From positions 1 through 64,000 of the IMG/VR virus record IMGVR_UViG_646311924_000007: DNA of 64,000 nt; one strand, given 5' to 3'. Under the pieces are notes generated by a model. That model had not been told where the DNA came from. It ran no database searches and saw only the letters and a program-made list of their open reading frames with translations. The position numbers and the translations under genes were made by a program. Of this stretch, positions 53,330-54,790 are shown one piece after another. This stretch comes from a virus. Lineage: Duplodnaviria; Heunggongvirae; Uroviricota; Caudoviricetes. Each line of letters opens with the position of its first letter. Positions within the stretch are counted from its first letter, which is position 1.

Positions 53330-53600
53330 CCGCGCAAATGTTGACTATGCGCGAAAGTTAATGTGAATAGTTGACTATGCGCGATGTGACTACAGTCAAA
53401 AGTTGACTGTAGTCGATTTAACTCCACCAAAGATCGACTATGTAAGATATTGTCGGGAGAAACGTTGACTATACGCGATGAAATGACCCTAAAAGCCATC
53501 TCAATAGCGACTTGCAGAATATTGACGCCAGCAAAAATCCACCAGCGTCAACGAATGTCGCCTATAGTCAACTTCTCGCTATCGCATATAGTCAATATTA
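53330..53600. repeat. incA-like iteron array (GTTGACTATGCGCGA-type repeats in both orientations)
   Basis: At least 8 copies of a 14-16 bp repeat downstream of repA. Confidence 0.75.
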
Positions 53601-54482
53601 TGGATTGCGCTTATGGATCTGAAAGCCGATTTTCCTGCCGTTTTTTATCTCTGAAAATTTAAGATATTCAATAGCTTCCAAATCTTTCATGGCTTTTCTG
53701 ATAACGCTATTTTGCACGCTAACGGATGATTTGAGATTAAGCCTTGCTCTAAGGCGCTCAATGCTGACAGGTGCCGGGTTGGCGGGTAGAGCCTCAAAGA
53801 ATGTATACAGTACCTTGGCCGTCTCTTTGCGCCCGAGCTTATCCAGCATCTTCAGCTTCAGGATTCGCTTATAGTCAACATAGTAAAGTTCAGATAGCTG
53901 TTTCTGCGGCTGGATCTCGATAACATCAAGCTCGGTATTCAGGCTGCTATATGCCAACAAGTTGACGTTAATGTTATTGAGATGACCTTTTGCCGCCGGG
54001 AAGCGGAATTTGACAACTGTCTGCTGAATGCGTGTCAGAGAGTCATCAATACTTTTACGGAACGCCTTTGAAAGGCGCTTACGTGGATAGCCGCATCGAT
54101 CGGCAAACTCGGAGAATGGCAGGGTGATTATGCCGTCATCATCAGGTGCGTAGTCAAACAACGCGGAGGTTATGCCCACCCACACCTTAAAATCAGTATC
54201 CATATCCAGGCGTGGACCATGAATTTCAATTCCCTCATAGCCTTCCTGCTCAACAATTTTGAGGCTTGATAGTTCTTCGGTTGCGTTCGTTGTGTTTGTA
54301 GTAACTGACGATCCGCGACGTAGTGCCACATTGGTAGATTTTAAGGTTGGCACAAACACACCTAAGCGCAACAAAGCAATGGGTTGTATAGTGCTATTGT
54401 TATTGGGTTTCAGGCTGTGGATTTCTCCTGTATTTCCTGCAACTTCTTCAACGCTAAGGAAGCCTTTATTTTCTTCCAGCAT
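53598..54482 (-). CDS. repA: RepA plasmid replication initiator (294 aa from ATG at 54482 with GGAG RBS)
   Basis: Flanked by iteron arrays; similarity to P1 RepA as recalled (IQPIALLRLGVFVP). Confidence 0.85.
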   Translation of the reverse strand: MLEENKGFLSVEEVAGNTGEIHSLKPNNNSTIQPIALLRLGVFVPTLKSTNVALRRGSSVTTNTTNATEELSSLKIVEQEGYEGIEIHGPRLDMDTDFKVWVGITSALFDYAPDDDGIITLPFSEFADRCGYPRKRLSKAFRKSIDDSLTRIQQTVVKFRFPAAKGHLNNINVNLLAYSSLNTELDVIEIQPQKQLSELYYVDYKRILKLKMLDKLGRKETAKVLYTFFEALPANPAPVSIERLRARLNLKSSVSVQNSVIRKAMKDLEAIEYLKFSEIKNGRKIGFQIHKRNP

Positions 54483-54544
54483 CGTGGTTTCTCCATATGT
54501 GGCGCGGCCTGGCGTCATCTGGATTGCAGTTATCAACAACTGTG

Positions 54545-54790
54545 AATAGTCAGGCTCTAAAATCGCGTACAGTCAATGTTTCTGTCGCATATAGTCAACA
54601 ATAAATCGCGTGCAGTCAACAATAAATCGTGCACAGTCAACATAAAATCGCGTATAGTCAATGTTGATCCCATTTCAGGCCAGAAATGGCGCGGCTTACA
54701 GCGATCCGGGATCTTCTTTGGATCTTCCTGGGTTCTCTTTAGGATCTGTTTATTGGATCTATGCTGTGGATAAGTTGAATAAACCGGCCA
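54545..54790. other. oriR: oriR-like plasmid origin: five direct iterons (TCGCrTryAGTCAAy, 54555-54675), five GATC sites (54700-54760), DnaA box TGTGGATAA (54764-54772)
   Basis: Repeats, GATC cluster and DnaA box read directly upstream of repA. Confidence 0.75.

Follow-up and report, generated by a model that had tools for sequence, protein, structure and literature searches.

The segment described here is very probably the replicon of a P1-like phage-plasmid in its plasmid prophage state, of the p0111 rather than the IncY type; the oriR-repA-incA plan of P1 is kept, and initiator and iteron both differ from those of P1. It was studied within a stretch of DNA of 64,000 nucleotides (the window, taken at its full length), and its parts, together with the neighbouring partition genes, are the following.

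52430..54782, minus strand: replicon cassette of 2.35 kb, in the place of P1 oriR-repA-incA (AF234172 about 61316-62910)
54774-54782, minus strand: degenerate DnaA-box 9-mer, TTATTCAAC, from a pattern scan
54765-54773, minus strand: perfect DnaA-box 9-mer, TTATCCACA, from a pattern scan
54703..54759, unstranded: five GATC (Dam) sites in AGATCC-type repeats, from a GATC scan
54563..54662, minus strand: five origin iterons (54648-62, 54627-41, 54606-20, 54585-99 and 54563-77), the equivalent of P1 incC
54591..54619, minus strand: best candidate repA promoter, TTGACT-17 bp-GACTAT, with TTGACT in iteron 3 and GACTAT in iteron 4
53598..54482, minus strand: repA, encoding a predicted iteron-binding initiator of 294 aa, with ATG at 54482 and GGAG 8 nt upstream
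53865..53879, minus strand: intragenic iteron in repA, GTTGACTATAAGCGA, encoding VDYKR
53558..53596, minus strand: two direct downstream iterons (53582-96 and 53558-72), oriented as the origin iterons
53521..53552, unstranded: inverted repeat with TTGACGC half-iteron-like arms, read from the sequence
53340..53478, plus strand: four inverted downstream iterons (53464-78, 53402-16, 53370-84 and 53340-54), at spacings of 62, 32 and 30 bp
53433-53448, in the plus-strand array: decayed iteron copy, aligned with an intact iteron in the D6-like relative L013
53388..53414, unstranded: perfect 12-bp palindrome, GACTACAGTCAA-aag-TTGACTGTAGTC, overlapping the inverted iteron 53402-16
52496..53305, minus strand: gene of a T5orf172 / GIY-YIG-family nuclease, inside the cassette (Pfam T5orf172, E=6e-7)
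52474..52488, minus strand: terminator-like hairpin, GCCCCTGAACGGGGC, followed by TTTTTT, at the cassette end
51131-52327, minus strand: parA, P1-type, outside the cassette (ParA 398/399 identical to P1)
50113-51114, minus strand: parB, P1-type, outside the cassette (ParB 332/333 identical to P1)
50026-50108, minus strand: parS, outside the cassette, with A and B boxes identical to those of P1

The iterons carry the first part of the argument. A scan of the whole 64-kb window with the pattern TCGCGTATAGTCAAC, allowing up to three mismatches, recovered 12 copies of one repeat unit, which reads rTTGACTrTAnGCGAt on the repA (minus) strand. All 12 lie within 53340-54662, and both arrays are where the earlier note had placed them; shuffled sequences gave 1.42 matches on average and five at most, and none of 100 shuffles reached 12. 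With a weight matrix the 12 iterons scored 21.8-27.5 bits and no other site in the window exceeded 12.3 bits; only the gap between the scores is informative, because the matrix was trained on the same 12 iterons. TTGACT and CGA are invariant in 12/12 copies, and the variable part consists of the central four to five positions. Five iterons are located upstream of repA, spaced by 21/21/21/22 bp, one is located within the gene and six are located downstream (two direct, four inverted), the iteron at 53582-96 ending 1 bp from the repA stop codon. The copy inside repA, at 53865-53879, was absent from the earlier account; it is identical at 15/15 positions in L013, despite an overall DNA identity of 77%. 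Among six close homologues, substitutions in the iterons are confined to the degenerate positions, and the homologous plasmid AP027771 has lost exactly one 21-bp origin unit.

The downstream array was also read as three direct plus six inverted iterons, nine in all as in P1, and this count was rejected. Two direct and four inverted copies alone score as iterons; one decayed copy (53433-53448) is backed by homology, and neither of the two TTGACGC elements rises above background. The inverted repeat at 53521..53552, one arm of which (GTTGACGCTGGnGGATTT) is kept in L013, could tentatively be regarded as an iteron, its weight-matrix score of 5.3 bits being at background level. The palindrome at 53388..53414 showed no conservation in the alignment with L013.

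RepA and the iterons were then compared with those of P1 and P7 by alignment, a check proposed in the earlier note. The P1 record AF234172 annotates 14 RepA-binding iterons as 19-mers of the GATGTGTGCTGGAGGGAAA type, of which incC, the origin, has five and incA has nine; the iteron type that the earlier note gave for P1 was correct. No iteron of the GATGTGTGCTGGAGGGAAA type was found in the 64-kb window at up to three mismatches, nor any window-type iteron in the P1 rep region, so that the two sets are as unlike each other as had been supposed. RepA is likewise both related to and diverged from P1 RepA, with 119/291 identical residues (about 41%, E=2e-71). Of the two marks of IncY membership, GATGTGTGCTGGAGGGAAA iterons and a near-identical RepA, the window has neither (RepA identity 40.9-41%). 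The architecture is nevertheless that of P1, comprising DnaA boxes, a Dam cluster, five phased iterons and a downstream array that switches orientation.

Protein evidence places RepA among the Rep_3 initiators. The RefSeq start for WP_000888906 is the same as the repA ATG, and the plasmid concerned is 100% identical over the region searched. RepA is ∼41% identical to P1/P7 RepA, 45% identical to SSU5 RepA and 47-49% identical to IncFIB RepA proteins, and the residues that are invariant in the P1/SSU5/IncFIB RepA family are present in it. The Pfam domain Rep3_C (WH2) was detected at 27.3 bits (cutoff 21.1), and Rep3_N (WH1) scored marginally below its cutoff (22.0 against 22.4 bits). Sequence and profile searches of the PDB with RepA returned nothing significant, and NCBIfam gave no match for RepA or for the T5orf172 open reading frames. 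The AlphaFold model of RepA has a mean pLDDT of 74 and is confident over residues 60-294; its top Foldseek matches were F RepE (E=9e-7), RctB, R6K pi, RK2 TrfA and the WH1 domain of pPS10 RepA. Against solved initiators the global TM-score was 0.3-0.4, and the WH1 domain alone superposed well at 0.59-0.63 (0.63 for pPS10 RepA WH1). As modelled, RepA would have the two winged-helix domains of Rep_3 initiators such as RepE, pi and pPS10 RepA.

Upstream of the origin iterons, the tandem DnaA boxes (54765..54782) fall, in the alignment with P1 oriR, on its annotated DnaA site, and the GATC cluster (54703..54759) falls on its five annotated Dam sites. The cluster is also conserved in L013, and a sixth GATC (54666-54669) lies beside the first iteron. 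A strict sigma-70 scan found no consensus promoter on the repA strand, and the candidate TTGACT-17-GACTAT, from a relaxed scan, matches 8/12 consensus positions. By analogy with P1, where PrepA lies inside iterons 12-10, this candidate within iterons 3 and 4 might serve as the repA promoter.

The limits of the cassette were determined from alignments with P1 and L013. On the left, blastn extends a 95.9% identical P1 alignment from 57994 to 54679, leaving ∼16 bp to the first iteron; by itself this would favour a chimeric origin, with the DnaA boxes and GATC repeats of P1 retained and the iterons, repA and incA exchanged by recombination inside oriR. A three-way alignment of the window, P1 and L013 puts the breakpoint at about 54782/54783 instead. 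To the left of 54783 the identity with P1 is 91.9% and no relationship to the D6-like element is seen; between the DnaA box and iteron 1 the window shares 85.5% identity with the D6-like p0111-type replicon and only 76.4% with P1. The chimeric reading was accordingly rejected as very unlikely, and the overrun of blastn into the origin is explained by the two origin types, IncY and p0111, being themselves homologous in their host-factor halves. On the other side, P1 identity resumes at window position 52429 (99.3%, blastn), just upstream of the par promoter. Because the host-factor half is closer to L013 than to P1, the alignments indicate that the whole replicon was swapped as one unit, 52430-54782, between upfA and the par promoter of a P1 backbone. 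Identity with P1 is 92-99% in the cassette flanks, and megablast aligns 51.3 of the 64 kb with P1, which agrees with the earlier proposal of a distinct replicon on a P1-like backbone. In the partition region, parS differs from that of P1 at five positions, all in the central IHF region.

The replicon thus delimited belongs to a type that has been described before. p0111 is the published alternative to IncY in P1-like phage-plasmids (PMC9603915, PMC11165635, PMC5241659), and repA' of one of them, JL22, has been typed as p0111 (PMC9603915). JL22 is 98.9% identical to the window in DNA and 99.7% identical in RepA, and RepA is 99.3-99.7% identical to the RepA proteins of RCS47 and SJ46. Typing tools usually require a rep-gene identity of about 95% or more. 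On the comparison with JL22, RCS47 and SJ46, the PlasmidFinder reference being AP010962, the replicon is the p0111 type already known from P1-like phage-plasmids as the alternative to IncY. Over 1.5 kb the region is 97.7-99.5% identical to RCS47, SJ46, JL22, phi456 and Ro157c2YLVW. For SJ46, RepA was reported to be 42% identical to P1 RepA (PMC5241659), and Pfeifer and Rocha typed 63/119 P1-like phage-plasmids as p0111 (PMC10879196). 'IncHI1B', the label that MOB-suite/PLSDB gives to this replicon, is an artefact of naming.

Over the region searched, identity reaches 100% with several plasmids from STEC O157, O111 and other strains, and the region is present in 414/5426 complete E. coli genomes (∼1/13), with 459/467 matching places on plasmids. 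A scan of genome contigs with RepA gave one locus only, 99% identical. No replicon other than this one is typed on pE2855-2, whose identity over the region searched is 100%. Among six homologues repA has 27 variable nucleotide columns, and the RepA proteins of the phage relatives are still 99.3-99.7% identical. From this prevalence, its position as sole replicon on pE2855-2 and the conservation of RepA despite the 27 variable columns, it follows that the p0111 replicon works in nature.

Since p0111 is routinely typed and several papers have dealt with the IncY/p0111 dichotomy, the replicon carries little weight as a discovery. No paper in the searchable literature treats p0111 and iterons together, and a prior account in the RCS47 or P1 genome papers is possible; the p0111 papers searched type the gene and leave the iterons undescribed. 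The iteron-level anatomy may therefore be new in print, and it is a direct corollary of known biology. Its added value lies in an explicit map of the p0111 origin (consensus, phasing, DnaA/Dam sites, control array and cassette limits), which would enable mini-replicons to be built and the incompatibility test to be made that the literature has so far assumed.

Within the cassette, the T5orf172 gene is interrupted. A nonsense change at 52971, where the window has T and five homologues have G, splits it into open reading frames of 111 and 134 aa, and RCS47 and an E. albertii plasmid have an intact gene of 269 aa. In the phage and plasmid collections it was never found apart from the p0111 rep region (12/12 phage records; 400 versus 398 plasmid records), and no relatives of it below 90% identity were found there. 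In the array neighbourhood of L013 no T5orf172 gene was seen, and the downstream genes of L013 differ in size and orientation.

The linkage between T5orf172 and p0111 is compatible with a homing idea. According to this idea the cassette would be a self-promoting replicon-swap module, whose nuclease cuts IncY-type P1 near repA, so that repair from a co-resident p0111-type element copies the nuclease gene and co-converts the replicon beside it. If true, a nuclease-driven swap would help to explain the repeated IncY/p0111 switches, 17 of which were inferred on a tree of Salmonella phage-plasmids (PMC11165635). We found no positive evidence for a homing-nuclease driver, T5orf172 being a pseudogene here and none being seen beside the array of the D6-like relative, and we consider the idea highly improbable.

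The same strict linkage in P1-like elements (12/12 phage records; 400 versus 398 plasmid records) would also speak for the repeats being sites of a factor other than RepA, such as the T5orf172 protein or a host regulator, or else signals for recombination or packaging. This is extremely unlikely on several grounds. First, L013 keeps the full iteron layout together with an 85% identical RepA, and no T5orf172 gene is seen beside its array, inside which its homology to the window stops. Second, T5orf172 is a pseudogene in the window, yet the element is common. Third, the positions, the phasing and the orientation switch of the repeats copy those of the P1 RepA sites. Furthermore, across the RepA clades examined the repeat changes with the clade and keeps its positions: GATGTGTGCTGGAGGGAAA in P1, ATCCACTGTAGTGAGTAG in SSU5, TATAAGCTGTAGTCAGTAA in IncFIB, TGTCTAYTGTATGCTA in an IncFIB(K)-like plasmid and GTTGATGCTAGTCGAT in Proteus.

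Taking the repeats as RepA iterons, we propose the following mode of replication; the present analysis covers anatomy, homology, cassette limits and natural prevalence, and the function is drawn by analogy from iteron plasmids, P1 among them. RepA monomers would bind the five 21-bp-phased origin iterons and, together with host DnaA at the adjacent boxes, would open the Dam-methylated GATC-repeat region, leading to theta replication. With the repA promoter within the iterons, the gene would be under autorepression by RepA. The two direct and four inverted iterons of the downstream array would titrate RepA and handcuff the origin, thereby keeping the copy number low. In addition, the p0111 and IncY initiators would each ignore the sites of the other, resulting in separate specificities of replication incompatibility, because the two iteron sets share no recognisable sequence and the RepA proteins are just 41% identical.

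Iteron specificity is the classical determinant of incA/incC incompatibility. The absence of any cross-match between the two iteron sets thus argues against the possibility that the p0111 replicon still interferes with IncY, through RepA-RepA heterodimers or limiting host factors, and forms no separate group in practice. Typing schemes likewise keep the two as separate replicons (PMC9603915, PMC11165635). Such interference would be helped by the 41% identity of the RepA proteins, which have many invariant residues in common, and by the 76% identity of the host-factor halves of the origins, and a published compatibility experiment was not found in the literature searched; IncY and p0111 are described there as being able only to 'theoretically be compatible' (PMC11165635). 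Weighing both sides, we regard interference as unlikely, and replication of the p0111 element should be compatible with that of P1 (IncY).

For this element the separate specificity would be limited to replication control (incA/incC). Because ParA, ParB and the parS boxes are of the P1 type, incompatibility with P1 mediated by partition should persist. Compatibility in replication would therefore fall short of full compatibility, the partition system being that of P1.

Compared with known systems, the replicon follows the plan of P1 oriR-repA-incA. The two have in common the tandem DnaA boxes, the five GATC sites, the five origin iterons at 21/21/21/22 bp (iterons 14-10 in P1), the downstream control array with its orientation switch and the location in the P1 genome; P1 iteron 9 starts at the repA stop, and the window likewise has an iteron there. 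They differ in the iteron, GATGTGTGCTGGAGGGAAA in P1 against rTTGACTrTAnGCGAt in the window, and in the downstream set, which numbers nine in P1 (three direct, six inverted) and six solid copies in the window (two direct, four inverted). The iteron inside repA and the nuclease gene are extras of the window. The p0111 relatives RCS47, SJ46 and JL22 have the same linked T5orf172 gene at the same place between upfA and parA, and differ from the window in that the nonsense mutation of this gene is in the window.

In the RepFIB family (IncFIB of the F/pO157 type, IncFIB(K) and SSU5), RepA is 45-49% identical to that of the window, slightly closer than P1 RepA, and iterons lie on both sides of the rep gene as they do here. 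A TrTAGTSA-like core is common to the p0111 iteron and those of IncFIB and SSU5, whereas each member of the family has its own iteron consensus and most of the RepA proteins have a C-terminal extension of roughly 40-60 aa, which is absent here. The replicon of Proteus mirabilis (P0008) has a RepA that is 53-54% identical and an iteron, GTTGATGCTAGTCGAT, that shares the GTTGA...CGAT ends; it differs in its backbone and in eleven 43-bp tandem repeat units after rep. The D6-like phage-plasmid replicon L013 (E. coli GCA_013513435.1; RepA P0003) has a RepA that is 85% identical, and it shares with the window the iteron type (TTGACTATGTGCGA), the 21/21/21/22 spacing, the intragenic iteron and the DnaA/GATC segment. 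Its TTGACT...GCGA iterons and the orientation switch have been kept while the spacers diverged, and it differs in lying on another backbone, flanked by D6-like morphogenesis genes.

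A relative of the p0111 replicon was identified on a D6-like phage-plasmid of E. coli (GCA_013513435.1, contig DABKFZ010000018.1, 2710-4115; locus L013), where the RepA is 85% identical to that of the window, the iteron reads TTGACTATGTGCGA and the phasing is identical. The backbones of this lineage and of the p0111-type P1-like elements differ; nevertheless, because their iterons are nearly alike, the two may be incompatible in replication.

The same relative bears on an iteron that lies within the replication gene:

53865-53879, full-consensus iteron that is part of the repA reading frame and is translated as VDYKR

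All 15 of its positions are kept in the D6-like locus (3604-3618), although the DNA overall is only 77% identical. In the Proteus relative, too, the rep gene contains that replicon's iteron without a mismatch (L016, 2425-2440), at another position and in the opposite orientation. With the mismatch limits applied, P1, SSU5 and IncFIB showed no intragenic iteron. The repA-internal iteron may be an additional control site.

The cassette also carries a gene on the parA side of the iteron array:

52496-53305, gene of the T5orf172/GIY-YIG family

At 52971, where five homologues have G, the window has T; this single change turns a Tyr codon into a stop and divides the gene into two ORFs. The full-length gene (269 aa) is present in the P1-like phage RCS47 and in an E. 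albertii plasmid. In phage records (12 of 12) as in plasmid records (400 versus 398), the gene was found only alongside the p0111 rep region, and relatives below 90% identity were absent from the same phage and plasmid collections. No T5orf172 gene was seen adjoining the D6-like replicon. In MOB-suite/PLSDB the p0111 replicon is labeled 'IncHI1B' (pE2855-2, NZ_CP099870.1 and AP027771.1), and papers based on PlasmidFinder name the same replicon p0111, a mismatch that could mislead automated surveys.

The window begins at the lox site, which is P1 coordinate 1, and matches to P1 extend over 51.3 of its 64 kb (86-99% identity). The blocks lacking a P1 match, including 17857-18638, 25606-28405, 39102-40156 and 43834-44526, appear to coincide with the variable regions that have been listed for P1-like phage-plasmids (PMC9603915). 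Besides the regular icd-ant1 copy, which is covered by the alignment at 40157-43833, the P1 icd-ant1 region is matched in inverted orientation at 2482-2822 and 3615-4069 (86-89% identity). These segments make up a second antirepressor-like module, diverged in sequence and close to the res-mod locus, as has been reported for some STEC P1-like plasmids (PMC6906374, Table 1).

The par region (50058-52429) is 99.3% identical to P1 AF234172 and had no megablast match in OP279344.1, another record named 'P1' with a parB of 966 nt; partition alleles therefore vary among records labeled P1. The ParB of the window is identical to that of P1 at 332 and to that of the P1-like phage SJ46 at 331 of 333 positions, values that are hard to square with the published description of these Par proteins as P7-like and remote from those of P1 (PMC5241659).

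At the origin, the natural p0111-type plasmid AP027771.1, whose repA annotation is also shorter (834 nt), lacks exactly one 21-bp iteron unit compared with 54585-54605, and thus has four origin iterons instead of five. Two inverted repeats were also recognized:

53388-53414, perfect 12-bp palindrome, GACTACAGTCAA aag TTGACTGTAGTC, formed by two iteron halves head-to-head
53521-53552, second inverted repeat, with TTGACGC arms

Conservation in the D6-like relative is limited to one arm of the TTGACGC repeat and does not extend to the palindrome. Both elements look like the sites that serve as dimer operators in other Rep_3 plasmids, except that they lie downstream of repA.
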